Shown piece by piece: positions 22,462-43,925 of a stretch of 49,897 bases of DNA. The position numbers and the translations under genes are program-made. Position 1 is the first letter of the stretch; the number at the start of each line of letters is the position of its first letter. The DNA comes from Escherichia phage JLBYU19. Below the pieces are notes generated by a model that did no database searches, was not told the origin of the DNA, and saw only the letters and a program-made list of their open reading frames with translations. The stretch lies in the sequence record OK272489.1. One strand, given 5' to 3'.

Positions 22462-22465
22462 AAAT

Positions 22466-22490
22466 CACCCGCCGAACGGCGGGTTTTTTA
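22466..22490 (+). terminator. intrinsic terminator at end of early rightward block
   Basis: CACCCGCC-gaac-GGCGGG hairpin + T7. Confidence 0.65.
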
Positions 22491-22502
22491 TTGCCCGTTG
22501 TT

Positions 22503-22511
22503 TGGTATAAT
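22503..22511 (+). promoter_or_regulatory. candidate extended -10 promoter before terminase genes
   Basis: TGGTATAAT (TGn + TATAAT) 12 nt after terminator T-tract and 29 nt before TerS ATG; no good -35. Confidence 0.35.
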
Positions 22512-22539
22512 CAGGCATCTAACCAAAGGAGGATTAACA

Positions 22540-23067
22540 ATGGCTAAAAACGTTGAGCCTGCTGTAAAGGCATTAAATTTCAAAGAGTTATACAATAAAA
22601 CTTATGGCGATATTGTTACGCTAAACAACCGCCACAAGTACACGCCGGAACAGGTTTTTGATATGGCGATCCGCTATTTCACTTGGGCCGAAGAGAATCA
22701 CATCCAGGCGGCTGAAACTGCTTCCTTTCAGGGTGACGTGTACGAGAGCAGAGTTTACAAGCCTCGCGTTTTCACGGTTAACGGATTCAGCTTGTATCTC
22801 GGCGTGACTGAGGCTGCCGTAAGCAAATGGCGTAAAGAGCCTGGATTCTGCGATGTGATGGAGTTTGTTGATAAAGTAATTTACGAGCAAAAATTCCAGC
22901 TTGCGGCAAATAACATGATTAATGCTGGATTTATCGGTAAAGAGATCGGCGTAGAGAAGCCAGCAACAGTGAGCGTTGAAGCTAGCGCGGCAGCTAATGC
23001 AAGCATTGACGCAGTAACTGCCGATGAGGTGAAAGAGGCTGTTATTGATATTCTGGAGCAACTTTAA
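22540..23067 (+). CDS. terminase small subunit
   Basis: 175 aa from ATG 22540 (AAGGAGG RBS); immediately upstream of and overlapping large terminase gene. Confidence 0.55.
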   Translation: MAKNVEPAVKALNFKELYNKTYGDIVTLNNRHKYTPEQVFDMAIRYFTWAEENHIQAAETASFQGDVYESRVYKPRVFTVNGFSLYLGVTEAAVSKWRKEPGFCDVMEFVDKVIYEQKFQLAANNMINAGFIGKEIGVEKPATVSVEASAAANASIDAVTADEVKEAVIDILEQL

Positions 23068-24635
23068 TGATCATATGGGAAGATTTGACGGCGGCGCAAA
23101 AGCGAGCCATTAAAGAAATCAGTGAGCATTCATTCGAAAAGATGATCAGAATCTGGTTTCAGTTATTGCAGGGGCAAAAATTCCAGAGCAACTGGCATTT
23201 TAGCTTATTGTGCAGTGAGGTAGAGAAGATCATCAATGGAGAGTCGCAGAATGTGATTTTCAACATTACGCCAGGTAGCGGTAAGACTGAGATTTTCTCG
23301 ATCCACATGTCACCCTACGCGTCATTGAAAAGTCGGAAGGTGAGAAACCTTAACCTTTCGTTTAGTGATGGACTTGTCCAGCAAAACAGCAACAGGATAA
23401 AGGAGATTATCGGTTCTCCTGAGTGGCAAGAGCTATGGCCAGGAAAACTGGCAAAGGCGAGCGCAAAAGATCTCATAGTTACGGATGGCGGCAAGGTTAA
23501 ATTGCAAGTTAACTCACGTTCTATTGGCGGACAGGTAACAGGTTTGCGTGGCGGCTATATGGACGATGGTTTTACTGGTATGCTGGTTCTGGACGATCCA
23601 GACAAGCCGGATGATATGCTTTCTAAGGTCAAGCGTGAGGCGATCCACATGCGGTTAAAAAACACAGTGCGATCGCGTCGAATGAAAGACACTACGCCGA
23701 TTGTTATGGTGCAACAGCGACTACACGTTAATGATTCCACCTGGTTCATGCTTAATGGCGGAATGGGTGGTATTGAGTTTAAAGTCGTGAGCATTCCGGC
23801 GCTGGTTACGAAAGAATACCGCGAATCGCTTCCTGATTGGTTGAAGCCTGAATTTGATCGTGATGTGCTGTCAAGTAAGCCAGTGATGATAGATGGCGTT
23901 GCTCATTATTCATTTTGGCCTGCGAAGGAAAGCGCGGAGGAGTTGCTTGCATTGCGCAATGCAGATCCTTACACGTTCTCCAGCCAATACCAACAGCAAC
24001 CAATCGCGCTGGGCGGGAACGTGTTTAAAACAGAGTGGTTCCAGTATTACGGCAGCGGCGAAAAATGCGCACTTCCTAAACCGGATCGCTTTGAATACAC
24101 ATTTATTACTGGAGATACCGCGCAGAAGGCCGGAGAGCTTAACGACTATTCTGTTTTTTGTTATTGGGGGATGTATAAGAATCGCGTTTACTTCATTGAT
24201 GGCATTCGCGGAAAGTGGGAAGCGCCGGATCTTGAATTAAATTTTATTGCCTTCGTTAATCAGTGCTGGAAGCGCAATAAGGAGTGTGGCAGCTTGCGAC
24301 GTATCCACATTGAGGATAAGGCCAGCGGCACTGGTTTGATTCAGGGGGCCAAAAAGAAGATCCCGATTGATATAAATCCCGTTCAGCGAAGCAACGACAA
24401 GGTAACGAGAGCAATGGACGCCGCGCCAGTAATGAGGGCCGGACGTGTGGCACTGCCAGAAAATCACCCAATGCTGCCTGAGATACTGGCAGAGGTTGCA
24501 GCATTCACTTTTGATGATTCTCATCCCCATGATGATATTGTCGATAATATAGTTGATGCTGTTAACGTCGAAATGAACTTGGCAGATGATCCGGTGGCAA
24601 GGATGAAAAAGCTGGCTGGTCTACGCAATAAATAG
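23067..24635 (+). CDS. terminase large subunit
   Basis: 522 aa; Walker A-like NITPGSGKT; position and size. Confidence 0.8.
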   Translation: MIIWEDLTAAQKRAIKEISEHSFEKMIRIWFQLLQGQKFQSNWHFSLLCSEVEKIINGESQNVIFNITPGSGKTEIFSIHMSPYASLKSRKVRNLNLSFSDGLVQQNSNRIKEIIGSPEWQELWPGKLAKASAKDLIVTDGGKVKLQVNSRSIGGQVTGLRGGYMDDGFTGMLVLDDPDKPDDMLSKVKREAIHMRLKNTVRSRRMKDTTPIVMVQQRLHVNDSTWFMLNGGMGGIEFKVVSIPALVTKEYRESLPDWLKPEFDRDVLSSKPVMIDGVAHYSFWPAKESAEELLALRNADPYTFSSQYQQQPIALGGNVFKTEWFQYYGSGEKCALPKPDRFEYTFITGDTAQKAGELNDYSVFCYWGMYKNRVYFIDGIRGKWEAPDLELNFIAFVNQCWKRNKECGSLRRIHIEDKASGTGLIQGAKKKIPIDINPVQRSNDKVTRAMDAAPVMRAGRVALPENHPMLPEILAEVAAFTFDDSHPHDDIVDNIVDAVNVEMNLADDPVARMKKLAGLRNK

Positions 24636-24650
24636 CACTAATTGCTAAAA
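24631..24650 (+). promoter_or_regulatory. conserved junction element (variant AATAGCACTAATTGCTAAAA)
   Basis: atypical: TATAAT only 5 nt downstream (24656-24661), then a terminator hairpin before portal gene. Confidence 0.4.
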
Positions 24651-24664
24651 AGTTATATAATCAA

Positions 24665-24690
24665 GGCTGGATTTTTCCAGCCTTTTTTAT
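24665..24690 (+). terminator. intrinsic terminator between terminase and portal genes
   Basis: GGCTGGA-ttttt-CCAGCC hairpin + T6. Confidence 0.6.
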
Positions 24691-24705
24691 TATGGAGATT
24701 TGACG

Positions 24706-25998
24706 ATGAGTGAAAAAACAAGGCTAGTTAAGGCCGATGGATACAACGAGATTTTCAAGGGCAGCAAGGGCAATGGGCGTGTGGAGTTGCCTTTCTTTAT
24801 GCAAGGGTTCGAATACACCACGCACGCTGATTTTTACATTCGCGACGGCCTAGCAAAACGAATCATCGACGTTGTTCCAGAAGAAATGGTGACGCCTGGA
24901 TTTAATATTGACGGCGTGGAAGACGAGGAAAGTTTTAGATCTTTGTGGGATGAGAAGAGACTAAACGATAAAATCATTGATGCGCTTTGCTGGTCGCGTC
25001 TTTTTGGTGGCGCTGCAATCGTAGCAATCGTCCAGGATGGCAGGTCGTTAAAGTCACCTGTAGCGCCTGGTGCAATCCTTGAAGATGTTCGCGTTTACGA
25101 TCGCTTTCAGGTTAGGGTAGAAAAGCGCGAAACTAATCCACGCAAGGTAAGATATGGTGAGCCATTAATTTACACCATTTCACCTGGTGCCGACTTGCCA
25201 GAATACCAGGTTCACTATTCGCGAGTCTGTATTATCGACGGTGAGCGGCTACCAAATCAGCGGCGTCAATCAAATGATGGGTGGGGTGAGTCGATCCTGA
25301 ATAAGAGACTTGTTGAGGCTATTTGTGATTATAACTACTGCGAAAACTTAGCAACTCAATTGTTGCGACGTAAGCAACAGGCGGTATGGAAAGTTAAAGG
25401 TCTTGCTGATCTTTGTGATGATGATGATGGTGTTAGTGCCGCACGTTTGCGACTTGCTCAAGTTGATGATGAGGGTGGCGTAGGCCGTGCGATCGGCATT
25501 GATGCGGAAGATGAGGAATATGATGTTTTAAATTCTGATATTTCTGCCGTCGATTCGTTCTTGGAAAAGAAGATGGATCGCATTGTATCTCTTTCCGGCA
25601 TCCATGAAATCATCCTCAAAAACAAGAACGTTGGCGGTGTTAGCGCGAGCCAAAACACGGCGCTTGAAACCTTCTCCAAGCTGATCGACAGAAAGCGAAA
25701 GGAAGAATACAAACCAATCCTTGAATTTCTGATCCCGTTCCTGATTCAAGAGGAAGAATGGAGTATTCAGTTTGCGCCGTTAAGCGTTCCCAGCGAAAAG
25801 GACCAGGCCGAGATCTTGAACAAGAACATTGATTCTTTGAGCAAGGCTATTGACGGTCAATTCATGGATACAGAGGAGGCGCGCGACACATTGCGAGCCA
25901 TTGCGCCTAACGTTAAACTAAAAGACGGCAATAACATTAAATTACCTGAGCAGGACGTAGAGCCGGAGCCAGGAACAACCGAGGGTAGCAATCAATGA
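24706..25998 (+). CDS. portal protein
   Basis: 430 aa from ATG 24706 (GGAG RBS); follows terminase. Confidence 0.6.
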   Translation: MSEKTRLVKADGYNEIFKGSKGNGRVELPFFMQGFEYTTHADFYIRDGLAKRIIDVVPEEMVTPGFNIDGVEDEESFRSLWDEKRLNDKIIDALCWSRLFGGAAIVAIVQDGRSLKSPVAPGAILEDVRVYDRFQVRVEKRETNPRKVRYGEPLIYTISPGADLPEYQVHYSRVCIIDGERLPNQRRQSNDGWGESILNKRLVEAICDYNYCENLATQLLRRKQQAVWKVKGLADLCDDDDGVSAARLRLAQVDDEGGVGRAIGIDAEDEEYDVLNSDISAVDSFLEKKMDRIVSLSGIHEIILKNKNVGGVSASQNTALETFSKLIDRKRKEEYKPILEFLIPFLIQEEEWSIQFAPLSVPSEKDQAEILNKNIDSLSKAIDGQFMDTEEARDTLRAIAPNVKLKDGNNIKLPEQDVEPEPGTTEGSNQ

Positions 25999-26750
25999 TA
26001 GTGAAAGGCGTCGTTAAACAATGGCGCTTTCCTGAAGCAAGCGAGCGGCAATTGCGCCGCTCAATTCAGGAGGCGATAAGGGATCTTGTTGTGCTGATGC
26101 GCAGCAAAACAAAGGAAATGAAATTTGACGCGGACACCGAAGAAATCAACGCCGCAGAGGATGAGATTAGTAGCTTCGCGTTAAAGCTAATAGCTGGCAT
26201 CGCCGCATCACTTCCGGCTATCGGTCTTGCTGTTTATAAATTCAACTCGAAGCAATTTATTAACGTAGCCAAATCAACGGGAGGCAAGTCAAATTCAGCC
26301 GTTATCATCCTTATGGCTATTGGGGCCAATGCGAATGAGAGTTGGTATAGGACGCTATACGGTCAATGGCATGACATGACGATCGCATCTCTTCAAAAGC
26401 TATTTGGAAACATCGTGTCTGACTGGTCAACCAATATTAGATTGGCAAACTTTCGCGGAATGAGAGATAGCCAGGTTAATGAATTGGCTGGTAAGAGGTT
26501 CGCAGTGTATAGCTCTTGGGGTAAGACAAGGGCGGAAAACATCATAGGCGCTTGGAATAGTAGACTCATGCGCCAGCGTCTTTATGATTCAAAAGTAACT
26601 CATTATTTTTGGCATGGTATGCTTGATGACAGAGAGCGATTGCAGCATGTACAATGGGAAGGTAAGCGCATTGCGCTAGATTCTGAACATGATTTTCCTG
26701 GTGAGCCTTTCGGTTGTCGTTGTTGGGCCATACCAGATTGGAACAGTTAA
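25995..26750 (+). CDS. head morphogenesis / minor head protein
   Basis: 251 aa; start overlaps portal stop; position between portal and scaffold. Confidence 0.45.
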   Translation: MIVKGVVKQWRFPEASERQLRRSIQEAIRDLVVLMRSKTKEMKFDADTEEINAAEDEISSFALKLIAGIAASLPAIGLAVYKFNSKQFINVAKSTGGKSNSAVIILMAIGANANESWYRTLYGQWHDMTIASLQKLFGNIVSDWSTNIRLANFRGMRDSQVNELAGKRFAVYSSWGKTRAENIIGAWNSRLMRQRLYDSKVTHYFWHGMLDDRERLQHVQWEGKRIALDSEHDFPGEPFGCRCWAIPDWNS

Positions 26751-26760
26751 GAGGTATTAA

Positions 26761-27876
26761 ATGAAGGCAAAACAAAGATTTGATAGCGCCAAAGTAAAGG
26801 CGCACTTTGATGATAACGGGTTTTTAGTTGATCGCCCTATCGTGGCGCGAATTGGTTTACAAGTCTATCAGACTCCTTTCGGTGAGCGCCGAGAATTTCG
26901 CCCTGCGTCAGAAGTATTCAAGGCCGACTCGCTCGCCACCTTTGCAGGGAAGCCGGTCACGGTTGGTCACGTCACGGTAACGCCAGAAAATGCCGAAAAG
27001 GTTGTGGTTGGTTCTTGTGCTGGCGCTGGTGTGCCTAACGGGATCGGCGTAGAGGTTCCGTTAAGCATTTACTCAAAACGAGCAATCGAAAGCGCAAAGA
27101 AGCGAGACACGGCGGAAATTTCAGTTGGTTATACATCGGTTGATATTGATAAACCAGGCTGGGGCAATAATAAAACTGGTGAGTACGTTTTCGATGAGGA
27201 CGTTAGCGAAGACTGGAAACCTGATTCTCCTGATTGGGTTAAGTTTGATGCAATCCAGACTGAAATCAAGGTAAACCACATCGCGTTAGTTTTCCGAGGT
27301 CGAGCTGGCATTGCAAAATTAAACCTTGATAGCCAGCAAGATTTTCCGTATAGTGACGACGTTATTAACAACAAAGAGGATCAAATCATGACTGTAAAAA
27401 TTAAACTGGATGGCGCTGTAGAGTTTGACGTGCCGAAAGCGGTTGCGGATCACATTGAATCACTGAAAGCTGATACCAAAGCGCAGAAAGAAAAGGCTGA
27501 CAGCCTAGAAGCTGAGCGAGACGCACTGCAAACCAAAGTAGATGGCATTCAGGATCAGATTGATGCCGCAGTCAAGAAGGCCAAAGAAGATGCCGAGCAA
27601 TATGCTCAATTAGTGGCAGACGCTAAAGAGTTAGGCATCAAGTGCGACGGCCTGGATGCGAAAGCAATCAAGGTTGCATACATCAAGGAAGTTATGGGCA
27701 ATGACGTTTCTGATAAAACTGATGCCTATATCGAAACAGCTTTCGACATCGCCAAAAACTCTGATAAAATGGCGGCGCAGCGTAAGAGCATTAAAGGTGA
27801 CTCTTTCGCGAATGAAAAGCAGGATGACGCAGGTTCTAAGCTGAATCCTAACGCTCGTTTTGAGAAACTGAAATAA
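26761..27876 (+). CDS. capsid scaffolding protein (possibly with N-terminal protease-like domain)
   Basis: 371 aa; C-terminal half is a charged coiled coil (KADSLEAERDALQTKVDGIQDQIDAAVKKAKED). Confidence 0.5.
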   Translation: MKAKQRFDSAKVKAHFDDNGFLVDRPIVARIGLQVYQTPFGERREFRPASEVFKADSLATFAGKPVTVGHVTVTPENAEKVVVGSCAGAGVPNGIGVEVPLSIYSKRAIESAKKRDTAEISVGYTSVDIDKPGWGNNKTGEYVFDEDVSEDWKPDSPDWVKFDAIQTEIKVNHIALVFRGRAGIAKLNLDSQQDFPYSDDVINNKEDQIMTVKIKLDGAVEFDVPKAVADHIESLKADTKAQKEKADSLEAERDALQTKVDGIQDQIDAAVKKAKEDAEQYAQLVADAKELGIKCDGLDAKAIKVAYIKEVMGNDVSDKTDAYIETAFDIAKNSDKMAAQRKSIKGDSFANEKQDDAGSKLNPNARFEKLK

Positions 27877-27888
27877 GGAGTAATTAAA

Positions 27889-28398
27889 ATGGCTAAAATT
27901 GGAGCAAGTTATTTTGACACTATGGCGCGTGCGCTTCCTGGTCAGGTATCCGACACGTCAGCATATAACATCGACGGCGCTTGCGTTCTTGACAAGGAAG
28001 ACGGCATCCCAATCCTGGTTGGCGTGGCTGTTAAGCTAAAAGGCGTTGACTCAATGGGTAACAAGCTGATCGACTCCATTTCCGCTGGAGGTGATGTTCC
28101 TTATGGCGTTGGCATCCGCTCTCACTTTCAAACCACGGCTGATAATGGTCGAATGGTTTATGAGGTTGGCGGCGGAATCAACGTTATGACAGAGGGCCGC
28201 GTTTGGATGATTGTCGATGATTCAGATAAGGCCAAAAAGCCATCGTATCGCGAGCCTGTAAAAATTGATGAAAACACTGGCAAGGTGAAAAGTGGTGGCG
28301 CTATCAATACCAACTGGATTTACACGGGAGATAAAACCACATTTGGAACTGGCGAAGATGTGTTGACTTTGTTTGAAGTTCAGGTTTTCCCAAGCTAA
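27889..28398 (+). CDS. capsid decoration/cement-like protein (paralog 1)
   Basis: 169 aa; AGGAG RBS; motifs YNIDG, GRVW, WIYTGD shared with next ORF; followed by terminator. Confidence 0.45.
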   Translation: MAKIGASYFDTMARALPGQVSDTSAYNIDGACVLDKEDGIPILVGVAVKLKGVDSMGNKLIDSISAGGDVPYGVGIRSHFQTTADNGRMVYEVGGGINVMTEGRVWMIVDDSDKAKKPSYREPVKIDENTGKVKSGGAINTNWIYTGDKTTFGTGEDVLTLFEVQVFPS

Positions 28399-28403
28399 AA
28401 TTA

Positions 28404-28432
28404 AGGCGCTCGCTTGAGCGCCTTTTTTATTA
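28404..28432 (+). terminator. intrinsic terminator after decoration-like paralog 1
   Basis: AGGCGCTCG-cttg-AGCGCCT hairpin + T6. Confidence 0.6.
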
Positions 28433-28448
28433 TGTAAGGAGAAATGAA

Positions 28449-29006
28449 ATGGCTAAAGATTATTCATCTGTTATGGGTCTTTCTTGCCCTGGTTGTTTGG
28501 TTGACTCTACTCGCTACAATATTGATGGAACTGGCGTTTGTGGTTCTGAGTCGATTATTGCTGGTAAGGTTGTTTTCTTCAAAGAGAGAGTAGAAGGTTA
28601 TAGCATATTTGTTGATCATAAAGAGCATGATGCGGTTGTTGCTGGCGTCGCGCTAAGGAGCAACATAACAACGACAGTTAACGAGGAAGACGGGTATTCA
28701 GACTACAAGGAAGGAGACGCCATCAACATTTTGACAAGAGGTGTTGTATGGTGTGTAACTCAAACAATTGAATCTCCTCCTGAACATGGCGATCTTGTTT
28801 ATGTTAACAATGATGGCTTTGTAGCAAAGAGTGACGGGGATGAAATCGTCGATGGCTGGATTTTTACTGGTGACTTCTACAAGTTTGATGAAACAATAAA
28901 CATAGTAGGAGTAAGGATAACGCCGCTTCATCATAGAAAATACCTTCTTACTGGTGCGATAATTGAGGCTGAAAATGGCTACATAGAGGGGAACAGAGAC
29001 GATTAA
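28449..29006 (+). CDS. capsid decoration/cement-like protein (paralog 2)
   Basis: 185 aa; AGGAG RBS; motifs YNIDG, RGVVW, WIFTGD. Confidence 0.45.
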   Translation: MAKDYSSVMGLSCPGCLVDSTRYNIDGTGVCGSESIIAGKVVFFKERVEGYSIFVDHKEHDAVVAGVALRSNITTTVNEEDGYSDYKEGDAINILTRGVVWCVTQTIESPPEHGDLVYVNNDGFVAKSDGDEIVDGWIFTGDFYKFDETINIVGVRITPLHHRKYLLTGAIIEAENGYIEGNRDD

Positions 29007-29232: not shown

Positions 29233-29257
29233 CTGATAGCATAAAAAAACATTGCAC

Positions 29258-29276
29258 GTTTAACAAAAAGTGCTAT
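29258..29276 (-). promoter_or_regulatory. conserved junction element, oriented away from adjacent capsid gene
   Basis: plus strand reads GTTTAACAAAAAGTGCTAT; flanked by inverted repeat TGATAGCA (29234) / TGCTATCA (29271). Confidence 0.45.
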
Positions 29277-29282
29277 CATCTA

Positions 29283-29308
29283 GGCCGTTACATTTAACGG
29301 CCTTTTTT
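29283..29308 (+). terminator. intrinsic terminator immediately upstream of major capsid gene
   Basis: GGCCGTT-acattt-AACGGCC hairpin + T6, directly followed by GGAGG RBS. Confidence 0.6.
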
Positions 29309-29322
29309 ATGGAGGAAGCAAA

Positions 29323-30294
29323 ATGGCTAAAAAATACGATGAATTAGATGCTACCATTGTAGCAAATCATTTACAGGTTCAGGGCGTTAAGGGTGATGCT
29401 TCTGATATGGGTATTTGGACCGCTCAAGAGCTACACAAGATCCGTTCAACGGCATACGAGAAAGAGTATCCGGCAGGTTCCGCACTTCGCGTATTCCCTG
29501 TAACAAACGAGCTTTCTGATACTGATAAGACTTTTGAGTATCAGACTTTTGATAAGGTTGGCTACGCGAAAATTATCGCCGACTACACCGACGATCTGCC
29601 GACCGTGGACGCGCTGATGACTTCTGAATTTGGCAAGGTGTTCCGCCTGGGTAACGCTTTTCTGATCTCCATTGATGAGATTAAAGCGGGTCAGCGAACT
29701 GGCAAGAGCCTGTCAACTCGCAAGGCTAACGCTGCGCAAAATGCGCATGATCAGTTGATTAACTTCCTGGTGTTCAAAGGTTCCAAGCCTCATAAGATCG
29801 TTTCCGTTTTCGATCACCCTAACCTTACGAAAATTGTTTCTAAAGGATGGATGAGCCAGGATGGAAACACCAAGTTCCCTGATGTGGCAAGCGATGAACT
29901 GGAGGCTGCAATCGAGACTATCGAGGAAGTAACCAAAGGTCAGCACCGCGCGACTAACATCCTGATCCCGCCGTCCATGCGTAAAGTCTTGACGGTTCGA
30001 ATGGAAAATACCACTGAAAGTTATCTTGAATACTTCCAGAAGCAAAACGGCGGCATCACTATCGACTCTATCGCAGAGCTTGAGGATATTGACGGCAAAG
30101 GTACGAAAGGTTGCTTGGTTTACGAAAAAGATCCAATGAACATGAGCATTGAGATTCCAGAAGCGTTTAACATGCTTCCGGCGCAGCCAAAAGACCTTCA
30201 TTTCAAGGTTCCTTGCACTTCCAAGTGTACTGGCCTTACTATTTACCGTCCGTTTACGATGGTGCTTATTACTGGCTTGAAAAAGTCAACTTAA
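29323..30294 (+). CDS. major capsid protein
   Basis: 323 aa; GGAGG RBS; flanked on both sides by intrinsic terminators (own unit); position in head module. Confidence 0.6.
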   Translation: MAKKYDELDATIVANHLQVQGVKGDASDMGIWTAQELHKIRSTAYEKEYPAGSALRVFPVTNELSDTDKTFEYQTFDKVGYAKIIADYTDDLPTVDALMTSEFGKVFRLGNAFLISIDEIKAGQRTGKSLSTRKANAAQNAHDQLINFLVFKGSKPHKIVSVFDHPNLTKIVSKGWMSQDGNTKFPDVASDELEAAIETIEEVTKGQHRATNILIPPSMRKVLTVRMENTTESYLEYFQKQNGGITIDSIAELEDIDGKGTKGCLVYEKDPMNMSIEIPEAFNMLPAQPKDLHFKVPCTSKCTGLTIYRPFTMVLITGLKKST

Positions 30295-30305
30295 TTAGAT
30301 AACAT

Positions 30306-30337
30306 GGGGAGCCTTAAGGGTTCCCCTTTTTTTATTT
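30306..30337 (+). terminator. intrinsic terminator after major capsid gene
   Basis: GGGGAGCC-ttaag-GGTTCCCC hairpin + T7. Confidence 0.65.
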
Positions 30338-30351
30338 ACGGAGTACACAAA

Positions 30352-30618: not shown

Positions 30619-30667
30619 TAATTGGGGCGCTTATGCGCCCCTTGTCATATCTGGAGAAAACAAAATG
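30616..30667 (+). repeat. leader element shared with ssb leader (46277-46325)
   Basis: GAATATTAATAATTGGGGCGCTTATGCGCCCCTTGTCATATCTGGAGAAAACAAAATG vs GAATAATAAACGGGGCGCTTGCGCCCCTTTTGTCATAGGAGAAAACAAAATG. Confidence 0.55.
30626..30650 (+). terminator. hairpin/attenuator in leader of connector gene
   Basis: GGGGCGC-ttat-GCGCCCC followed by TTGTCAT (weak U-tract). Confidence 0.35.
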
Positions 30668-31888: not shown

Positions 31889-32279
31889 TTTAATGTTAGC
31901 GGCAAGAAAGGCGCTGGCGGAGGAATATGAATCACGATTCAAGATCGCCTATGAAAACGTTGATTTTGTTCCGCCTGGTGATGGTTCGATGTGGTTAAAA
32001 TTTGACTACATGGAAGCCGACACAGATCGCATATCTCTTGATAGAAAATGCGTTTCTTATATCGGATTGGTTCAGGTTGGAATTGTTATGCCTCCTGGCG
32101 GCGGCACTGATAAAGCGCGTTTGCTGGCTAAAGAGATTGCGAGATTTTTCTATGATGGTAGAATGTTTGAAACTGGCTATATTAGCGATGGGGCAAAGGT
32201 CCACACATTACTAAAAAGTGAAACAGGTTGGTTCTTACCGATCCGTTTCAGTGTTAGGCTTGACACAAAGGAGGAATAA
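31878..32279 (+). CDS. putative tail terminator/completion protein
   Basis: 133 aa; overlaps upstream gene by 11 nt; precedes major tail gene. Confidence 0.4.
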   Translation: MHYDLMLAARKALAEEYESRFKIAYENVDFVPPGDGSMWLKFDYMEADTDRISLDRKCVSYIGLVQVGIVMPPGGGTDKARLLAKEIARFFYDGRMFETGYISDGAKVHTLLKSETGWFLPIRFSVRLDTKEE

Positions 32280-32281
32280 TC

Positions 32282-32944: not shown

Positions 32945-32947
32945 AAC

Positions 32948-32970
32948 AAGGGGCGTTGCGCCCCTTTTTT
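32948..32970 (+). terminator. intrinsic terminator after major tail gene
   Basis: GGGGCG-ttg-CGCCCC hairpin + T6. Confidence 0.7.
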
Positions 32971-33010
32971 CATTCCTGTAAAATCAATCTATCAAATAAA
33001 TTAATTCCAC

Positions 33011-33029
33011 TTTTAACAAAAAGTGCTAT
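33011..33029 (-). promoter_or_regulatory. conserved junction element, oriented away from adjacent tail chaperone gene
   Basis: plus strand reads TTTTAACAAAAAGTGCTAT immediately followed by AAGGAG RBS of 33044 gene. Confidence 0.45.
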
Positions 33030-33043
33030 AAGGAGATCTTAAG

Positions 33044-33361: not shown

Positions 33362-33678
33362 AGCGGGCGGTTTACCTGTTTTACCTCAAGCCGCCAACTG
33401 ACGCACAATTAGAGGCCGTCGGCCTATCCCGTTCAGACTACGAAGGGGAGGAGCCGCCGGAGGTAATTTTTGATGAATCAATGTTTCAATCTTGGGATCT
33501 GTTTTGCGCTATGCAGACGCAATGGAGATCGACTAGCGGCAGTGTGTATGGGTTCGACTATAACGTTTTGCCTATGCTTTTTGACATTTACAAGATTGAG
33601 GATCGGGAGATGGCGCTAAATGATTTGCGCATCATGGAACAAAAGGCGCTAGAAATGATTCATTCAAACAAAACATAA
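33277..33678 (+). CDS. tail assembly chaperone T-domain (-1 frame, expressed as G-T fusion)
   Basis: -1 frame open from 33277, overlapping gpG-like ORF; QSWDLFCAMQTQW region typical of phage tail assembly protein T. Confidence 0.6.
   Translation: MAGLLPVCVIIADWSLYESTCGAAGKKLKRAVYLFYLKPPTDAQLEAVGLSRSDYEGEEPPEVIFDESMFQSWDLFCAMQTQWRSTSGSVYGFDYNVLPMLFDIYKIEDREMALNDLRIMEQKALEMIHSNKT
33352..33358 (+). other. -1 programmed frameshift slippery heptamer A_AAA_AAC (G to G-T)
   Basis: heptamer in frame of gpG-like ORF 3 nt before its stop; -1 frame continues open to 33678. Confidence 0.6.
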
Positions 33679-33698
33679 GCGCCGCGAGGCGCTTTTTT
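33677..33698 (+). terminator. intrinsic terminator/attenuator before tape measure gene
   Basis: AAGCGCC-gcga-GGCGCTT hairpin + T6. Confidence 0.55.
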
Positions 33699-33717
33699 AA
33701 TATCTGGAGGTTTTAAA

Positions 33718-36399: not shown

Positions 36400-36752
36400 T
36401 AATGAAACTGGATCAGTTTAAGTGGTGTACGCAGGTTCAGAATGGTGGCGGGGCCATGACGTCATCGAATAACGATCGAGAGATTGCATTCGGTAACGGA
36501 TACACACAGGTAGCATCTGGAGGTTTTAACACAATCCGGCGAGAGTTCAGCATTGTTTACGCTGGGCTTGATTACAGAGATGTTGTCAAGTTCCTGAATG
36601 AGCACAGGCTAAAACCTTTCTTGTGGATCATGCCAGATGGAAGCCCTGGATTGTTTAGGGTGAAAAGCGGTAGCGTCGGCCTTACTCCATTGTCGCCAAC
36701 CGTTCAGGAAGTAAAAGCCACTTTTACGGAGCAATTTACATCAATGCAGTAA
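36396..36752 (+). CDS. minor tail protein (lambda gpM-like)
   Basis: 118 aa directly after tape measure gene; followed by terminator. Confidence 0.65.
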   Translation: MIMKLDQFKWCTQVQNGGGAMTSSNNDREIAFGNGYTQVASGGFNTIRREFSIVYAGLDYRDVVKFLNEHRLKPFLWIMPDGSPGLFRVKSGSVGLTPLSPTVQEVKATFTEQFTSMQ

Positions 36753-36756
36753 TTTA

Positions 36757-36781
36757 AAGCCGCCTTTGTGCGGCTTTTTTC
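36757..36781 (+). terminator. intrinsic terminator after gpM-like gene
   Basis: AGCCGC-ctttgt-GCGGCT hairpin + T6. Confidence 0.6.
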
Positions 36782-36814
36782 TTGATGTTACAATGAGCAA
36801 AAAGGAGGTAGAAA

Positions 36815-38307: not shown

Positions 38308-38884
38308 ACTATCTGGTTCCCTGGGGCGTAGATTTGGCGTCTTTCACAAAATGGCGGTTGACTCATACCCCGAAGCAATACGAGCGTTATCTTCCCAGGT
38401 TGATGGGTTCAAAGACTACATGCAAAGCGAAGTAGGATCGCGAATGAAGTATGCTGTATTTGTTGATGGAAAAAACGTTAGTCAGCATGATGAAAAATCA
38501 TGGAAGTGCGCGCGAGAGGTTCGAATAGTTCCCGTTCCAACTGGTTCTAAGTCCGGCGGCCTGTTCAATGTTGTTTTTGGTGCTGTAATTATGGCTACTG
38601 CGTTCATTACTGGCGGTGCAAGCCTGGCGGCTATGGGCGCTTTTGCATCTTCCGCATTTATGATGGGTGGTGCTATCGCGCTTGGCGGTGTCATGCAAAT
38701 GATCTCGCCGCAGCAGGGCGGAATGAAACTGCAAAGCCAATCAGCAGAAAACAAGCCTTCTTACGCTTTCGGCGGTGCTGTAAATACCACGGCGGCAGGT
38801 TATCCGGTTCCTTTGCCATATGGATATAGGACAGTAGGCGGCGCAATCTGGTCGGCTGGCAGCTACGCAGAAGATAAAGCATAA
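38288..38884 (+). CDS. tail assembly protein (lambda gpI-like)
   Basis: 198 aa; hydrophobic Gly/Ala-rich central segment; followed by terminator. Confidence 0.6.
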   Translation: MTLKVIKLSGSLGRRFGVFHKMAVDSYPEAIRALSSQVDGFKDYMQSEVGSRMKYAVFVDGKNVSQHDEKSWKCAREVRIVPVPTGSKSGGLFNVVFGAVIMATAFITGGASLAAMGAFASSAFMMGGAIALGGVMQMISPQQGGMKLQSQSAENKPSYAFGGAVNTTAAGYPVPLPYGYRTVGGAIWSAGSYAEDKA

Positions 38885-38890
38885 AAAAAT

Positions 38891-38914
38891 ACCCGCCTTG
38901 CGCGGGTTTTTTTG
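38891..38914 (+). terminator. intrinsic terminator after gpI-like gene
   Basis: ACCCGC-cttg-CGCGGGT hairpin + T7. Confidence 0.6.
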
Positions 38915-38962
38915 TGCATTTATAATGTGCAAACCAAGAAACAGCACAAAAGGTTAAAAGTC

Positions 38963-41900
38963 ATGGCTAAATATATGATAAGCGGCAGCAAGGGCGGAAG
39001 CAAAAAGCCATACGTGCCAAAAGAGATGGAAGATAACCTTATCTCGATAAACAAGATTAAAGTTTTGCTGGCTGTATCTGATGGCGAGTGCGATCCAGAT
39101 TTCACGTTGCGCGATCTTTATCTTGATGATGTTCCGGTTATTGCCAGCGATGGCACTGTTAACTACGAGGGAGTTACGGCTGAATATCGACCAGGTACGC
39201 AGACGCAAGATTACATCCAGGGTTTTACTGACACATCAAGTGAGGTGACAGTTGCAAGAGATATTACCGGAGACAATCCTTATATTATTTCTGTTACAAA
39301 TAAAAATCTATCTGCGGTAAGAATAAAGATCCTGATGCCAGTAGGCATTAAAACAGAGGATAACGGCGATCTTGTTGGCGTAAGGGTTGAGTATGCCGTA
39401 GATATGGCTGTTGATGGCGGTTCTTATAGCGAGGTTATGAGAGATGTAATTGACGGCAAGACAAGATCAGGATACGACCGCAGCAGAAGGATTGATCTTC
39501 CTAAGTTTGATGAGCGCGTTTTAATCCGAGTAAAGCGACTGACTCCAGACAGCACATCTTCAAAGGTGACTGATAAAATCAAGCTGCAAAGTTACGCTGA
39601 GGTTATTGATGCAAAATTCCGCTATCCTCTGACTGGACTTGTATTCGTAGAATTTGACAGCGAATTGTTTCCTACGCAAATCCCTAACATTTCTATAAAA
39701 AAGAAATGGAAGATTATTAATGTGCCAAGCAACTATGATCCAATATCAAGAGAATATCACGGGTCATGGGATGGGACTTTTAAAAAAGCGTGGTCAAATA
39801 ATCCTGCTTGGGTTCTTTATGATCTGGTGACAAATCAGCGTTATGGACTTGATCAGCGAGAGTTAGGAATACAGATCGACAAGTGGAGCTTATACGAGGC
39901 GGGCGTTTACTGCGATCAGAAAGTTCCAGACGGTAAAGGCGGCACTGAGCCTCGCTACCTATGCGATGTGGTGATTCAGAATCAAGTTGAGGCTTATCAG
40001 CTAATCCGTGACATTTGCTCAATCTTTCGCGGAATGAGTTTTTGGAATGGTGAGAGCTTATCAATCGTGATTGATAAGCCGCGCGATCCATCATACGTGT
40101 TTACTAATGAAAACGTCATCAACGGTGATTTTCAGTACACAAACGCAAGCGAAAAAAGCATGTACACGCAGTGTAACGTGACGTTTGACGACGAACAAAA
40201 CATGTATCAGCAGGACGTAGAGGGGGTTTTTGATACTGAGGCGGCATTACGATTTGGATACAACCCAACAAGCATTACAGCGATCGGGTGTACGCGCAGG
40301 AGCGAAGCGAATCGTCGCGGTCGTTGGGTTTTGAAAACAAACCTTAGAAGCACTACTGTAAACTTTGCTACCGGACTAGAGGGGATGATTCCATCAATAG
40401 GTGATGTTATTGCTATCGCTGATAATTTTCAGAGTAGCAACCTAACGTTAAACCTATCGGGCCGAGTAATGGAAGTTTCAGGGCTGCAGGTTTTCGTTCC
40501 GTTTAAGGTTGATGCTCGCCCTGGTGATTTTATTATCATCAACAAGCCGGACGGCAAGCCAGTTAAGCGCACGATCTCAAAGGTTAGCGCAGACGGAAAA
40601 ACCATTGAGTTAAATATTGGATTTGGTTTTGATGTTAAGCCTGATACTGTTTTTGCGATTGACCGTACTGATCTTGCGTTGCAGCAATACGTTGTGACAA
40701 CCATCAGCAAGGGTGATGACGAAGACGAGTTTACCTATTCAATCACGGCTGTAGAGTACGATCCGAACAAATACGACGAGATTGATTATGGAGTAAACAT
40801 TGATGACAGACCGACTTCAATTGTTCAGCCTGACGTGATGGCAGCGCCTGAGAACGTTAAGATCTCATCTTATTCTCGCGTCGTGCAGGGTGTTAGCGTT
40901 GAGACTATGGTTGTTTCATGGGATAAGGTTCCTTACGCATCGCTTTATGAAATGCAGTGGCGAAAAGGTGATGGTAACTGGCTGAATACGCCGCAGACCG
41001 CTAACAAAGAGATAGAGGTAGAAGGGATTTACTCTGGCAACTACCAAGTAAGGGTGAGATCCGTTTCTGCAAGCGGTAACGCTTCCCCGTGGTCAAAGAT
41101 TGCAACCGCCACTCTGACAGGTAAAGTTGGAGAGCCAGGAGCGCCGATTAATCTTACGGCTTCTGATAATGAAGTTTTTGGCATTCGTGTCAAATGGGGT
41201 ATGCCGGAAGGATCAGGCGATACGGCTTACATTGAGCTTCACCAATCGCCAGACGGAACGGTTGAAAACTCAAGTCTGCTTACGCTGATTCCATATCCTC
41301 AATATGAGTATTGGCATAGCACGTTACCAGCGGGGCAAGTTGTATGGTATAGAATCCGCAGCGTTGACAGAATAGGCAACGTTTCAAGCTGGACTGACTT
41401 TGTTCGCGGCATGGCGTCAGATGACGTTGAATCTGTTTTGGGCGACATTCTGGACAAGATTTTTGATACAGAAGCTGGTCAAGAAATCAAAGAGAACGCC
41501 ATAGACAGTGCCAATAAAATCAAAGACCAGGCGCAATCAATCATACAGAACGCGTTGGCAAATGATGCAGATGTGAAGTGGACGCGAGTGCAAAACGGAA
41601 AGCGCAAGGCTGAATATGGTCATGCTCTTGAGCTTATCGCCAATGAAACAGAAGCGCGCGTAACTCAAATCGAAGAATTAAGGGCATCAATTGATGGCGA
41701 GATAACATCAAGCATCAAGACAGTGCAGGAGGCAATTGCCACTGAATCAGAGACGCGAGCGACTCAAATTCAGCAGCTTGATTCTAAATTCACAAAAGAA
41801 ATCGACGGCGTGCGCAAGGATACTTCTGCAAGCATTAGCGATGTAAGGCAGACAATCACTAACGAGTCAGAAGCGCGCGCTCAGGCCGTTCAGCAGCTTG

Positions 41901-42541
41901 ACGCTAAGTTCACGAAAGAGATAAACGACCTTGACGGAGTTATCAAAACAGAAGTCGAGGCTAACATCTCAGAAGTGAAACAGGCGATCGCCAATGAGAC
42001 AGAGGCAAGGGTTCAGGCTGACCAGGCATTAACAGCACGATTTGGCGACGTTGAATCTGCATTGGTTGAAAAGTTGGATTCTTGGGCGAGCGTTGATTCA
42101 GTTGGGGCTAAATACGCTATGAAACTTGGCCTTACTTACAAAGGCCAGCAATACAGCGCAGGAATGGTGATGCAGCTTTCGCAGGGTTCATCCGGCCTTA
42201 TCTCGCAAATTTTGTTTGATGCTAACAGGTTCGCCATTATGACTAGCTCTACTGGAGGGACTTTTACTTTGCCTTTCGTGGTTGAGAATAATCAGGTTTT
42301 CATTAATAGTCTTTTGGTGAAGAACGGTTCAATCACTAATGCGATGATTGGTAATGTGATTCAGTCAAACAACTTTGTTCAAAACCAGCAAGGATGGAGG
42401 CTTGATAAAAACGGAATCTTTGAGAATTACGGATCAACGCCAGGAGAAGGAGCTACTAAATTCACCAATGAGGGATTGAAGGTAAAAGATGCAAACGGAG
42501 TATTGAGGGTTGAAGTCGGAAGGATTACCGGAAGCTGGTAA
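38963..42541 (+). CDS. central tail fiber / host-specificity protein (lambda gpJ-like)
   Basis: 1192 aa from ATG 38963; largest ORF of tail module, after gpI-like gene. Confidence 0.8.
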   Translation: MAKYMISGSKGGSKKPYVPKEMEDNLISINKIKVLLAVSDGECDPDFTLRDLYLDDVPVIASDGTVNYEGVTAEYRPGTQTQDYIQGFTDTSSEVTVARDITGDNPYIISVTNKNLSAVRIKILMPVGIKTEDNGDLVGVRVEYAVDMAVDGGSYSEVMRDVIDGKTRSGYDRSRRIDLPKFDERVLIRVKRLTPDSTSSKVTDKIKLQSYAEVIDAKFRYPLTGLVFVEFDSELFPTQIPNISIKKKWKIINVPSNYDPISREYHGSWDGTFKKAWSNNPAWVLYDLVTNQRYGLDQRELGIQIDKWSLYEAGVYCDQKVPDGKGGTEPRYLCDVVIQNQVEAYQLIRDICSIFRGMSFWNGESLSIVIDKPRDPSYVFTNENVINGDFQYTNASEKSMYTQCNVTFDDEQNMYQQDVEGVFDTEAALRFGYNPTSITAIGCTRRSEANRRGRWVLKTNLRSTTVNFATGLEGMIPSIGDVIAIADNFQSSNLTLNLSGRVMEVSGLQVFVPFKVDARPGDFIIINKPDGKPVKRTISKVSADGKTIELNIGFGFDVKPDTVFAIDRTDLALQQYVVTTISKGDDEDEFTYSITAVEYDPNKYDEIDYGVNIDDRPTSIVQPDVMAAPENVKISSYSRVVQGVSVETMVVSWDKVPYASLYEMQWRKGDGNWLNTPQTANKEIEVEGIYSGNYQVRVRSVSASGNASPWSKIATATLTGKVGEPGAPINLTASDNEVFGIRVKWGMPEGSGDTAYIELHQSPDGTVENSSLLTLIPYPQYEYWHSTLPAGQVVWYRIRSVDRIGNVSSWTDFVRGMASDDVESVLGDILDKIFDTEAGQEIKENAIDSANKIKDQAQSIIQNALANDADVKWTRVQNGKRKAEYGHALELIANETEARVTQIEELRASIDGEITSSIKTVQEAIATESETRATQIQQLDSKFTKEIDGVRKDTSASISDVRQTITNESEARAQAVQQLDAKFTKEINDLDGVIKTEVEANISEVKQAIANETEARVQADQALTARFGDVESALVEKLDSWASVDSVGAKYAMKLGLTYKGQQYSAGMVMQLSQGSSGLISQILFDANRFAIMTSSTGGTFTLPFVVENNQVFINSLLVKNGSITNAMIGNVIQSNNFVQNQQGWRLDKNGIFENYGSTPGEGATKFTNEGLKVKDANGVLRVEVGRITGSW

Positions 42542-42545
42542 AAAA

Positions 42546-42569
42546 GGGGGCATAGCCCCCTTTAATTTT
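42546..42569. terminator. bidirectional terminator between gpJ-like gene and leftward accessory operon
   Basis: GGGGGC-atag-CCCCC hairpin with flanking A- and T-tracts. Confidence 0.6.
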
Positions 42570-43807: not shown

Positions 43808-43925
43808 TGTTATTTTTTGTTTTCCGGTGTTATCGAATTTAAGACGGCGTAAATTTAGCGCAAAATTTAGACAACATAAGATCAATAAACAATCAATAAA
43901 ATAGATATATACATATAAAATCAAT

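Follow-up and report, generated by a model that had tools for sequence, protein, structure and literature searches.

The window, that is, the whole 49,897-nt stretch of Escherichia phage JLBYU19 that was analysed (OK272489.1), represents a T1-like phage of the Drexlerviridae (Tempevirinae, Warwickvirus) and is 99% identical to its closest record, Shigella phage JK16, which is without terminator annotation. From 22467 to 42563 its late genes are punctuated by ten compact GC hairpins with T-tracts on the coding (+) strand, all ten of them intergenic (Table 1). Their stems are 6-9 bp long, with dG from -9.5 to -15.4 kcal/mol, and a T-run of 5-7 follows each of them except at 42543, where the + strand tail reads TTTAATTTT. 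Under strict criteria these 10 sites on the + strand compare with a mean of 0.2 and a maximum of 1 in 40 dinucleotide-preserving shuffles, and the - strand holds 2, each the reverse face of a bidirectional hairpin; a loose-criteria scan gives 37 sites vs 20.1 ± 4.5 expected. That the hairpins are canonical intrinsic-terminator structures of the coding strand is supported. The earlier note had spoken of at least twelve hairpin and T-tract terminators; the structures are real and lie on the coding strand, and the junctions it named are exactly the ten sites found (both capsid flanks included), but the number comes down to ten canonical sites plus one hairpin-only site, because 30624-30641 is without T-tract. 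It had also placed an RBS soon after several hairpins, and indeed an SD-like motif begins 8-14 nt past the stem at 24663, 28403, 29282, 30306, 30624 and 33677.

Table 1. Hairpins, promoter motifs and direct repeats of the late region (dG in kcal/mol; positions are those of the window).
Feature	Position	Strand	Sequence and remarks
Terminator before TerS	22467..22490	+	ACCCGCCGAACGGCGGGT + TTTTTATT; dG -13.3; ends early small-gene block
P_TerS, extended -10 promoter	22503..22511	+	TGGTATAAT; -35 region is the terminator's T-tract
Family direct repeat copy	24632..24650	+	ATAGCACTAATTGCTAAAA; between TerL stop codon and 24656 hexamer
Candidate promoter adjoining hairpin	24656..24661	+	TATAAT; predicted start inside hairpin's 5' arm; putative function
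Terminator TerL/portal	24663..24690	+	AAGGCTGGATTTTTCCAGCCTT + TTTTATTATGGAG (SD); dG -14.7
Candidate internal promoter, protease/scaffold gene	27743..27770	+	TCGACA-16-TGATAAAAT; ~120 nt before HtjA
Candidate promoter adjoining hairpin 28403	28373..28401	+	TTGAAG-17-TAAAAT; scan match, weak evidence
Terminator after HtjA (first decoration-like gene)	28403..28430	+	dG -15.4
P_MCP	29252..29279	+	TTGCAC-16-TGCTATCAT
Hairpin + T-tract between P_MCP and capsid gene	29282..29309	+	dG -13.0
Candidate promoter adjoining hairpin 30306	30277..30305	+	TTGAAA-17-TAACAT; lineage-specific, weak evidence
Terminator after major capsid gene	30306..30333	+	GGGGAGCCTTAAGGGTTCCCC + T7; dG -14.9
Hairpin after gp37	30624..30641	+	GGGGCGCTTATGCGCCCC; dG -15.6; tail TTGTCATATC, no T-tract in JLBYU19's clade
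P_MTP, inside gp41	32137..32164	+	TTGCGA-16-TGGTAGAAT; ~118 nt before major tail gene
Terminator after major tail gene, bidirectional hairpin	32948..32970	+	dG -12.8; - strand face also detected
P_G	32977..32984	+	TG-TAAAAT, 12 nt past hairpin
Direct repeat copy, leader of gene G	33011..33029	-	antisense to late genes
Terminator or attenuator, G-T chaperone/tape measure gene	33677..33699	+	dG -11.7
Terminator after gpM	36756..36780	+	dG -11.3
P_L, extended -10 promoter	36786..36794	+	TGTTACAAT
Terminator after gpI	38891..38913	+	ACCCGCCTTGCGCGGGT + T6; dG -9.5
P_J	38898..38926	+	-35 TTGCGC in hairpin loop + 3' arm; -10 TATAAT (38921-38926)
Bidirectional terminator closing late module, gpJ/convergent membrane-protein gene	42543..42563	.	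dG -14.6; - strand tail TTTTTTACC, + strand tail AATTTTAAT; better T-tract on - strand

Both the positions and the structures are conserved. Seven Drexlerviridae of six genera (TLS, T1, LF82-12, KLPN1, Rtp and JK06 among them) carry 8-11 sites at matching junctions with differing stems, and 27-53 IMG/VR relatives have matching sites per junction set; phiEt88, an outgroup myovirus with homologous head genes, carries a single such site. Among IMG/VR relatives, hairpin and T-tract are found before TerS in 24/25 (and in 6/6 reference genomes including the region), at TerL/portal in 27/27 (five or more different stems when genera are compared), at MCP/gp37 in 45/45 (19 distinct, perfectly paired stems), at T/TMP in 48/50 (12 distinct stems), at M/L in 35/37 and at I/J in 36/38; after the major tail gene, strict thresholds yield 37/51 (12 distinct stems in the loci that pass, 16 at a looser cut-off). 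The post-HtjA site is present in 7/7 genomes, its stems being unrelated. At the tight gp41/MTP and TMP/M junctions of IMG/VR relatives, hairpin and T-tract occur in 0/50 and 0/47, respectively. Throughout, pairing is kept and stem sequences vary, with many compensatory pair changes, also in the pre-capsid hairpin at 29282.

Being placed at gene-module boundaries, and several of them being near-perfect palindromes set between A and T tracts, the sites might instead be regarded as DNA-level elements that resemble terminators, for example hot spots of recombination or module exchange, signals for replication or packaging, or sites bound by a protein. Such a reading is highly improbable, for it is the pairing and not the stem sequence that is conserved, the T-tract is strand-asymmetric and always lies on the coding strand, the spacing to RBS and -10 hexamers is fixed, and the ten sites have no sequence motif in common.

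The late region holds six or more conserved motifs of sigma70-type promoters. One each stands upstream of TerS, upstream of the capsid gene and within gp41, and others follow the hairpins of the major tail, gpM and gpI genes; several promoter motifs have poor -35 elements. The extended -10 at 22503 is present, yet it is not the only candidate late promoter, as had been supposed, and a single operon read from one promoter is not supported in view of these motifs. Four promoters share a -10 at fixed offset past a hairpin. For P_TerS a hexamer with at least 5/6 matches follows in 23/23 distinct contexts, at 14 or 21-22 nt in 22/23; for P_G, almost all 30 contexts displayed have TGTAnAAT 11-13 nt past the hairpin and, at a threshold of 5/6 matches, a -10 is found in 30/41 contexts, 28 of these at 11-13 nt. 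P_L has its -10 at 10-13 nt in 18/22 distinct contexts, and lacks it where the RBS directly follows the hairpin, while P_J has it in 25/26, 24 of these at 12-14 nt. The 17-nt spacer of P_J consists of the 3' arm and T-tract of the gpI hairpin, whose loop TTGCGC is conserved despite varying stems.

The P_MCP motif, TTGaCg-16-TGcTATnAT with a hairpin 1-2 nt on, recurs in nearly all of 41 distinct IMG/VR contexts as well as in T1, TLS, LF82-12 and KLPN1. Its spacer and -10 are the reverse complement of a family direct repeat, which at the TerL junction is found in 19/20 distinct contexts of relatives; the antisense copy in the gene G leader, conserved in T1-type relatives, has TAGATT 19 nt downstream on the - strand, facing the bidirectional hairpin. 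P_MTP is conserved at synonymous and non-synonymous sites alike: GAT GGT AnA ATG is invariant in 24 distinct sequences even though its third codon may specify R, K, T or I, with AGA and ATA kept despite their rarity, and the -35 TTG is retained in nearly all. Both P_MTP and the candidate at 27743 lie within coding sequence. The homologous position of the latter is occupied in 7/7 genomes, the evidence being weaker because of its overlap with the conserved peptide FD.AK.SDKM; its conservation is explicable by codon constraints.

Elsewhere a -10-like hexamer precedes the hairpin. At TerL/portal it is found at most 12 nt upstream in 16/18 distinct contexts, the same test giving 0/30 at T/TMP and 0/23 before TerS; before the MCP/gp37 hairpin it occurs in 16/36 distinct contexts, and that of the 28373 candidate is variably conserved in seven genomes. 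Starts 7 ± 1 nt past such hexamers leave a residual hairpin of -0.7 to -6.6 kcal/mol (-3 to -6 at TerL/portal), detached from the U-tract, and the start predicted for P_MCP falls inside the 5' arm of the 29282 hairpin. Where the hexamer stands 1-3 nt before the hairpin, as at the capsid gene and TerL/portal and less consistently at HtjA and MCP/gp37, transcripts may escape termination because they would start within the 5' arm, and upstream-derived transcripts would be stopped. The 29282 hairpin would terminate upstream transcripts and could possibly form a 5' stem-loop of the capsid mRNA.

In some lineages the pre-capsid and gp37 hairpins are retained without T-tract, which points to an additional or alternative role at the RNA level; at gp37, other lineages keep TTTTTT and the site qualifies as a terminator in 28/45. 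Along this line, 3' stem-loops might shield segments of processed long late transcripts from exonucleases, and 5' stem-loops from RNase E, stoichiometry being set by segment half-life and not by termination. The persistence of T-tract-less hairpins (in JLBYU19 at 30624), the presence of hairpins on both flanks of the capsid gene, and the AU-rich single-stranded tract past each stem, a possible RNase E target sequence, are all in keeping with RNA stability. Yet the uninterrupted T-tract conserved at most junctions, on the coding strand only, is a signature of termination that a stabiliser does not need; as the explanation of the set this account is unlikely, although the roles of terminator and stabiliser are mutually compatible.

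The gp37/gp38 and T/TMP hairpins have no conserved promoter on either side, and the RBS stands ~12 nt past the stem; therefore the genes beyond them, gp38-gp41 and those of the tape measure and gpM, respectively, need read-through. The start codon is close as well, the tape measure ATG lying 23 nt past the T/TMP stem and the portal ATG 21 nt past that of TerL/portal. The earlier note had envisaged read-through, antitermination or attenuation: read-through with attenuation fits these two junctions, and evidence for antitermination was not found. In a processive antitermination scheme, efficient terminators would silence the late genes until a phage factor, be it protein or RNA, modifies the host RNA polymerase late in infection, transcripts from P_TerS and the other promoters then passing all hairpins as with lambda Q at pR'. 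The hairpins are indeed canonical and strong-looking, many early ORFs are without known function, and at gp37/gp38, T/TMP and possibly four more junctions there is no space for a downstream promoter, read-through being therefore obligatory. On the other hand, ten early proteins compared with Pfam and PHROGs gave no match to Q, N, Nun or any other antiterminator family. The small Cys-containing proteins proposed as antiterminators fared no better, that at 19674-19922 being without family match and that at 21959-22240 matching only PHROG 2919, of unknown function. No antiterminator is named in the T1 or JK16 annotations, no nut or put element was found, and an Rfam search was negative for RNA elements, put-like ones included. 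Nor are boxA-like sequences in excess (29 matches vs 22.3 ± 4.7). Were every terminator overridden, there would be little point in conserved internal promoters and in cassettes around the genes of abundant proteins. Antitermination of this kind is quite improbable.

The favoured reading, at a probability of roughly 0.6, is that Rho-independent terminators and promoters form insulating cassettes for the genes of abundant proteins, complemented by leaky attenuators. The host RNA polymerase would read the hairpins, which belong to a fixed Drexlerviridae set of terminators and promoters. Each very abundant virion protein would be made from a short cassette that has a sigma70-type promoter to itself and a terminator right after the gene: the capsid protein from P_MCP to the terminator at 30306, the major tail protein from P_MTP to that at 32948, and probably HtjA in a similar manner. 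At P_TerS, P_G, P_L and P_J, a -10-dominant promoter follows the terminator at a fixed 10-22 nt, hairpin and T-tract filling the -35 or the spacer, and transcription would halt and then resume at a new level. The gp37/gp38 and T/TMP hairpins would have to act as leaky attenuators lowering the expression of the connector genes and the tape measure. A point against this organisation is the strong appearance of the hairpins, for promoter-less units would be starved by efficient termination unless it were suppressed. The poor -35 elements of several promoter motifs, the location of P_MTP and the 27743 candidate in coding sequence, and the hairpins that some lineages keep without T-tract also weigh against it. 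Termination, its efficiency, the transcript starts and the effects on stoichiometry are what I infer from sequence comparison, and no experimental transcript map or published transcriptome of any T1-like phage was found in the literature.

In phiX174 the 'transcriptional current' is reset by a series of leaky terminators together with an element in which promoter and terminator overlap. As proposed here, the host RNA polymerase meets Rho-independent terminators after structural genes (TJ, TF, TG, TH), which step transcription down, and a promoter overlapping a terminator (pA-TH) resets its level; however, measurements show the phiX174 terminators to be weak, the JLBYU19 hairpins being strong-looking by prediction, and the two phages differ in genome type and size and share no homology. 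In T7-like phages, the T-phi terminator after gene 10 makes capsid mRNA abundant and lets part of the transcription run on into the downstream tail genes; it likewise stands right after the most abundant structural gene, but the enzyme it stops is the phage-encoded single-subunit RNA polymerase, it is one site versus ten, and it has no fused promoter. The lambda late operon is also a ~20-kb head-tail module of matching gene order read by the host RNA polymerase, with tail genes homologous through N15 and lambda; it relies, however, on one promoter and Q at pR', with essentially no internal terminator-promoter pairs, whereas in JLBYU19 some ten predicted terminators are accompanied by several promoter motifs, and a Q homologue was not found.

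The nearest precedent is T1 itself, whose RefSeq record (NC_005833) has terminators annotated at the equivalent late-gene junctions. The late region of T1 is presented in terms of 'transcriptons' in the statement of Roberts, Martin & Kropinski 2004 quoted in PMC11447400. The TLS paper quotes this model, has 20 intergenic terminator entries, and states that the authors were unable to confirm promoters. T1 and TLS share with JLBYU19 the type of hairpin, the idea of short terminator-flanked units containing RpoD promoters, and the junctions, i.e. before TerS and after the genes of TerL, gp49/HtjA, capsid, gp46/gp37, major tail, T-domain, gpM, gpI and gpJ. JLBYU19 differs from T1 in being a Warwickvirus, in its extra pre-capsid hairpin, with none annotated in the T1 record, and in the loss of the T-tract from its gp37 hairpin. 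To sum up, the punctuation of late genes by putative terminators is a family-wide trait, known from T1 and TLS and not peculiar to JLBYU19, to which the present comparisons add predicted late promoter motifs, conserved among relatives and without prior publication.

The hairpins of the late region are genuine, strongly non-random and deeply conserved structures. In 22000-41999 a built-in terminator scan counted 37 terminator-like sites, where shuffles gave 20.1 ± 4.5; its list is headed by perfect GC hairpins that run into stretches of T on the + strand. A strict ViennaRNA scan (hairpins no longer than 30 nt with no more than one unpaired base in the stem, ΔG ≤ -9 kcal/mol, T-tract score ≥ 3.3) gave ten + strand sites, all intergenic, whereas 40 dinucleotide shuffles of the scanned region averaged 0.2 and never exceeded 1. 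Like intrinsic terminators, they lie in sense orientation downstream of genes and well above chance (10 vs 0.2), and they sit at exactly the junctions named in an earlier note made from the sequence. That note had counted at least twelve terminators; its structures are upheld by the prediction, and its number is an over-count, for there are ten strict sites plus one hairpin lacking a T-tract, at 30624. On the - strand there are only two strict sites, namely hairpins 32948 and 42543 read in reverse. All eleven hairpins are compact and GC-rich (stems of 6-9 bp, ΔG -9.5 to -15.6 kcal/mol, the lowest value being that of the hairpin after gp37), and at nine sites 5-7 consecutive T immediately follow the stem. 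A Shine-Dalgarno (SD)-like motif stands 8-14 nt 3' of the stem at 24663, 28403, 29282, 30306, 30624 and 33677, in keeping with the ribosome binding sites that the earlier note had placed soon after several hairpins. No known RNA element explains the hairpins: at gathering thresholds, Rfam gave no hit anywhere in the window. A longer alternative hairpin at 22473-22504 (ΔG about -17 to -20) is unique to this genome, lies downstream of the termination point and is put down to chance.

The gene order of 22540-42541 is that of a T1-type late module: TerS, TerL, portal, MuF-like head morphogenesis protein and protease/scaffold; two decoration-like genes (HtjA, HdeC); major capsid (MCP), gp37-gp41 and major tail (MTP); the G and G-T chaperones and tape measure (TMP); and finally gpM, L, K, I and J. 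Along its whole length, the stretch 22400-34400 shares 99.0% identity with Shigella phage JK16 (Drexlerviridae, Tempevirinae, Warwickvirus), and 86 phage records cover at least 80% of it. The HdeC-like gene (28449..29006) carries one additional G in a G run at 28986-28994, the sole difference from JK16 in 890 nt; its frame consequently ends at 29006 and not at about 29231 (185 vs 260 residues), owing either to a sequencing or assembly error or to a true frameshift. In gene G (33044-33361) a slippery heptamer, A AAA AAC (33352-33358), lies directly 5' of the stop codon and the -1 frame runs on into the T ORF (33481-33678), which encodes the T-domain of the G-T chaperone; this agrees with the frameshift usual for G/G-T tail chaperones, and a joined CDS is annotated at the corresponding place in TLS and KLPN1. 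ORFs of the - strand towards the right end of the window contain tandem 63-nt repeats in two pairs (47407-47529 and 49176-49301; 90% and 76% identity).

Conservation was followed in seven Drexlerviridae from six genera or subfamilies (the window, TLS, T1, LF82-12, Klebsiella phage KLPN1, Rtp and JK06), with the myovirus phiEt88, whose head genes are homologous, as outgroup. Strict sites number 10, 11, 8, 10, 10 and 9 in the late regions of TLS, T1, LF82-12, KLPN1, Rtp and JK06, respectively, and 1 in phiEt88. A hairpin with T-tract occurs in essentially every T1-like reference genome at nine junctions (before TerS, TerL/portal, after HtjA, MCP/gp37, gp37/gp38, MTP/G, T/TMP, M/L and I/J), and never where genes abut or overlap in the genomes compared. 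Related loci from three scans of IMG/VR number 53, 27 and 39. Orthologous positions are occupied in the seven reference genomes and in IMG/VR loci, of which there are 27-53 per junction set; the control junctions gp41/MTP and TMP/M carry hairpin and T-tract in 0/50 and 0/47 loci. Stems at shared junctions are often unrelated in sequence, those at TerL/portal reading AGGCTGG.., AGGGCTGTC.., AGCCGGGC.., TGTGGGCC.. and AGCCCC.., and compensatory changes are plentiful (e.g. GC, AT, CG and TA at one pair). Together these argue for selection acting on a hairpin and T-tract at fixed places and not on sequence.

In T1-like phages, terminators of the late region have been known and annotated before. 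The T1 RefSeq record holds 'regulatory: terminator, rho-independent' features at ten late places (before TerS and after TerL, gp49, the capsid gene, gp46, the major tail gene, gp39, gp37, gp34 and gp33), so the core observation stands already in the T1 literature and database record and the discovery is minor in this respect. For TLS, the re-annotation of 2024 gives the number of putative terminators as 21 and itemises 20, every one of them intergenic (PMC11447400); the listed sequences agree with the sites in the window. Other T1-like genome papers predict 18-21, or 8. No experimental transcript map (transcriptome, Term-seq) of any T1-like phage was found in the literature, and the PhageExpressionAtlas paper does not mention the family.

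The earlier note had seen a single promoter, at 22503, for the whole late region. The single-promoter view is mistaken. The motif at 22503 (P_TerS) is itself conserved, and the late module contains at least six conserved putative RpoD-type promoter motifs, named here after the gene that each would serve; judged by these motifs, the region appears to be multi-promoter. At the motif level, RpoD-type promoters do lie within the 'transcriptons', as the T1/TLS literature calls the late units between terminators.

Table. Features of the late region and copies of the 19-nt direct repeat (hairpins by start; loci with hairpin and T-tract from IMG/VR).
Feature	Position	Strand	Sequence	Setting or occurrence
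Hairpin, before TerS	22467	+		24/25 loci
Hairpin, TerL/portal	24663	+		27/27 loci
Hairpin, after HtjA	28403	+
Hairpin, before capsid gene	29282	+
Hairpin, MCP/gp37	30306	+		45/45 loci; 19 distinct stems
Hairpin, gp37/gp38	30624-30641		followed by TTGTCATATC	no T-tract here, ΔG -15.6; 28/45 loci; 11 distinct stems
Hairpin, MTP/G	32948	+		37/51 loci; 12 distinct stems
Hairpin, T/TMP	33677	+		48/50 loci; 12 distinct stems
Hairpin, M/L	36756	+		35/37 loci
Hairpin, I/J	38891	+		36/38 loci
Hairpin, after J	42543 (42546 in the strict scan)	+		T-tract broken on + strand
P_TerS (putative)	22503-22511		TGGTATAAT	conserved after hairpin
P_MCP (putative)	29252-29279		TTGCAC-16-TGCTATCAT	upstream of capsid gene; good promoter motif
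P_MTP (putative)	32137-32164		TTGCGA-16-TGGTAGAAT	within gp41, 118 nt before major tail gene
P_G (putative)	32977		TG-TAAAAT	3' of major tail terminator
P_L (putative)	36786		TGTTACAAT	3' of gpM hairpin; 18/22 contexts
P_J (putative)	38921		TATAAT	3' of gpI hairpin; 25/26 contexts
Candidate promoter	27743		TCGACA-16-TGATAAAAT	7/7 genomes
Repeat, early type	1475, 3964, 5035, 19120, 20414	+
Repeat, early type	8297, 10459, 11133, 13823, 14329, 15633, 43806	-
Repeat, late	24632-24650	+		before TATAAT and hairpin of portal junction
Repeat, late	29258-29276	-		on opposite strand, makes P_MCP spacer and -10
Repeat, late	33011-33029	-		antisense, leader of gene G
Repeat, late, degenerate	38941-38959	+		makes gene J 5' UTR and SD

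In 23/23 distinct contexts a -10 matching at 5/6 positions or better stands 3' of the TerS hairpin, in 22 of them at a constant distance of 14 or 21-22 nt, and the same design is seen again after the hairpins of the major tail, gpM and gpI genes. For P_G, TGTAnAAT stands at 11-13 nt in nearly all 30 contexts shown (a -10 in 30/41 at the 5/6 threshold). The -35 of P_J, TTGCGC, occupies the loop and 3' arm of the gpI hairpin exactly 17 nt upstream of TATAAT, the loop sequence being kept while the stems differ. P_MCP has counterparts in T1 (TTGACG-16-TATTAT) and LF82-12 (TTGACC-16-TATTAT) and is kept in about 40 distinct contexts, the hairpin always starting 1-2 nt 3' of the -10. Within the coding sequence at P_MTP, the codons GAT GGT AnA ATG are invariant in 24 distinct sequences; the third encodes Arg, Lys, Thr or Ile by AGA, AAA, ACA or ATA, two of them rare, whereby TAnAAT is kept, and neighbouring codons differ synonymously. 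Invariance despite the change of residue points to nucleotide-level selection for a promoter. The candidate at 27743 is weaker, since it overlaps a conserved peptide. A motif in TerL at 23615 (4/7 genomes) was rejected as matching a conserved peptide, and TTGCCT-17-TAAAAT in the T-domain (4 genomes; TAC AAG in the window) as a coding coincidence.

The read-through or attenuation proposed in the earlier note fits only some of the junctions, most clearly gp37/gp38 and T/TMP. At TerL/portal, HtjA/HdeC, before the capsid gene, MCP/gp37, gp37/gp38 and T/TMP, the start codon follows the stem by only 19-25 nt, and a -10 before the hairpin is found in 0/30 contexts at T/TMP and 1/34 at gp37/gp38. With no -10 on either side, the tape measure gene with gpM, and gp38-gp41, appear reachable only by read-through, and these two sites would be the sole clear cases of pure attenuators. 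At TerL/portal, TATAAT or TACAAT stands 1-3 nt 5' of the hairpin in 16/18 contexts, a geometry like that of P_MCP. The predicted start, 7 ± 1 nt after these hexamers, falls inside the 5' arm, and the computed residual hairpin, -0.7 to -6.6 vs -13 to -15 kcal/mol, stands apart from the U-tract. Promoters so placed would be immune to their own terminator, an argument of geometry and not of function.

Control of the late region by lambda-Q-type antitermination, a form of the antitermination that the earlier note had offered, would suit hairpins that look strong and a phage most of whose early ORFs have no known function, yet it is considered quite improbable. Ten early ORFs, among them those of the two small proteins put forward as antiterminators (19674-19922 and 21959-22240), yielded no Q, N or other antiterminator match in Pfam or PHROG, only families of unknown function and one helix-turn-helix (HTH) regulator at 990-1463(-); the T1 and JK16 annotations name no antiterminator. 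Neither Rfam at gathering thresholds nor a boxA search revealed a nut boxA/boxB, qut or put element. Read as its reverse complement, the direct repeat includes CTTTAACAA, similar to the rrn/lambda boxA core; TGCTCTTTAACAA, searched with up to 3 mismatches allowed, matched 29 times vs 22.3 ± 4.7 expected, and the lead was dropped for want of enrichment. Antitermination from one late promoter also fits poorly with at least six conserved internal motifs, and a multi-promoter model makes it needless to postulate an unknown antiterminator.

The 19-nt direct repeat of the T1-like family, ATAGCACtttTTGtTAAAA, reported in the TLS paper with no assigned function (PMC11447400), has 19 matches (up to 3 mismatches) in the window vs 2.8 expected. 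Twelve copies share the orientation of the early genes. Exactly 19 nt beyond each of them (18 nt in one case) comes a TAnnnT hexamer and after it, in order, a leader of some 25-30 nt, an SD and an ATG. Judging from this layout, the repeat seems to stand in for the -35 in a class of promoters specific to the phage. Downstream of the repeat-associated -10, the early leaders at 8237-8270, 13763-13796, 14269-14302 and 15573-15606 (-) share the motif (c)ATCGAAACGAA or ATCGACAACAA. Two similar AT-rich stretches (..TTTATTTATTTAT..TATAT..), one where the early gene blocks diverge (15934-15977) and one just upstream of the recombination genes (43907-43969), could be origin or strong promoter regions. 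The four late settings of the repeat are all kept in relatives. From the copy in the gene G leader, TAGATT lies 19 nt downstream on the - strand, aimed into the bidirectional hairpin 32966-32948, and an antisense RNA of about 45 nt could result. The window encodes only one recognisable transcription factor, the HTH protein (Cro/YdaS-like, PHROG 2856 'transcriptional regulator', homologous to T1 gp23), which is a candidate for binding the repeat.

The most economical reading combines private promoter/terminator units, weak fused promoters and leakage. The genes of abundant virion proteins (capsid, major tail and probably HtjA) would each have a private promoter and a terminator at the end; the low-copy genes G, L-K-I and J would be fed by a weaker promoter fused to a terminator; and gp38-gp41, and the tape measure gene with gpM, also low-copy, would be fed by leakage. 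A precedent with measured values is phiX174, where the transcriptional current falls to about 18% past three successive weak terminators and is reset by an overlapping promoter-terminator element. A more far-reaching, tentative proposal, given roughly one chance in five as a whole, takes the hairpins as halves of fused terminator-promoter devices of two types, with the direct repeat possibly an early-to-late switch. In the first type, most clearly P_J, the hairpin loop and T-tract may serve the promoter that follows as its -35 and spacer. In the second, exemplified by P_MCP and TerL/portal, the -10 abuts the hairpin, and its own transcripts may start within the stem and so escape a terminator that halts incoming polymerases. 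The repeat could act in the switch as an antisense or occluding promoter, or as a site for the HTH protein, which is conserved.

Any role in mRNA stability would probably come on top of termination: the hairpins before the capsid gene and after gp37 persist in some lineages devoid of the T-tract, which is kept at most junctions. T1-like phages are frequent laboratory contaminants and candidates for phage therapy, and the terminator and promoter coordinates of their late region are now precise enough for testing. The terminator set is, to sum up, a deeply conserved trait of the T1-like family.
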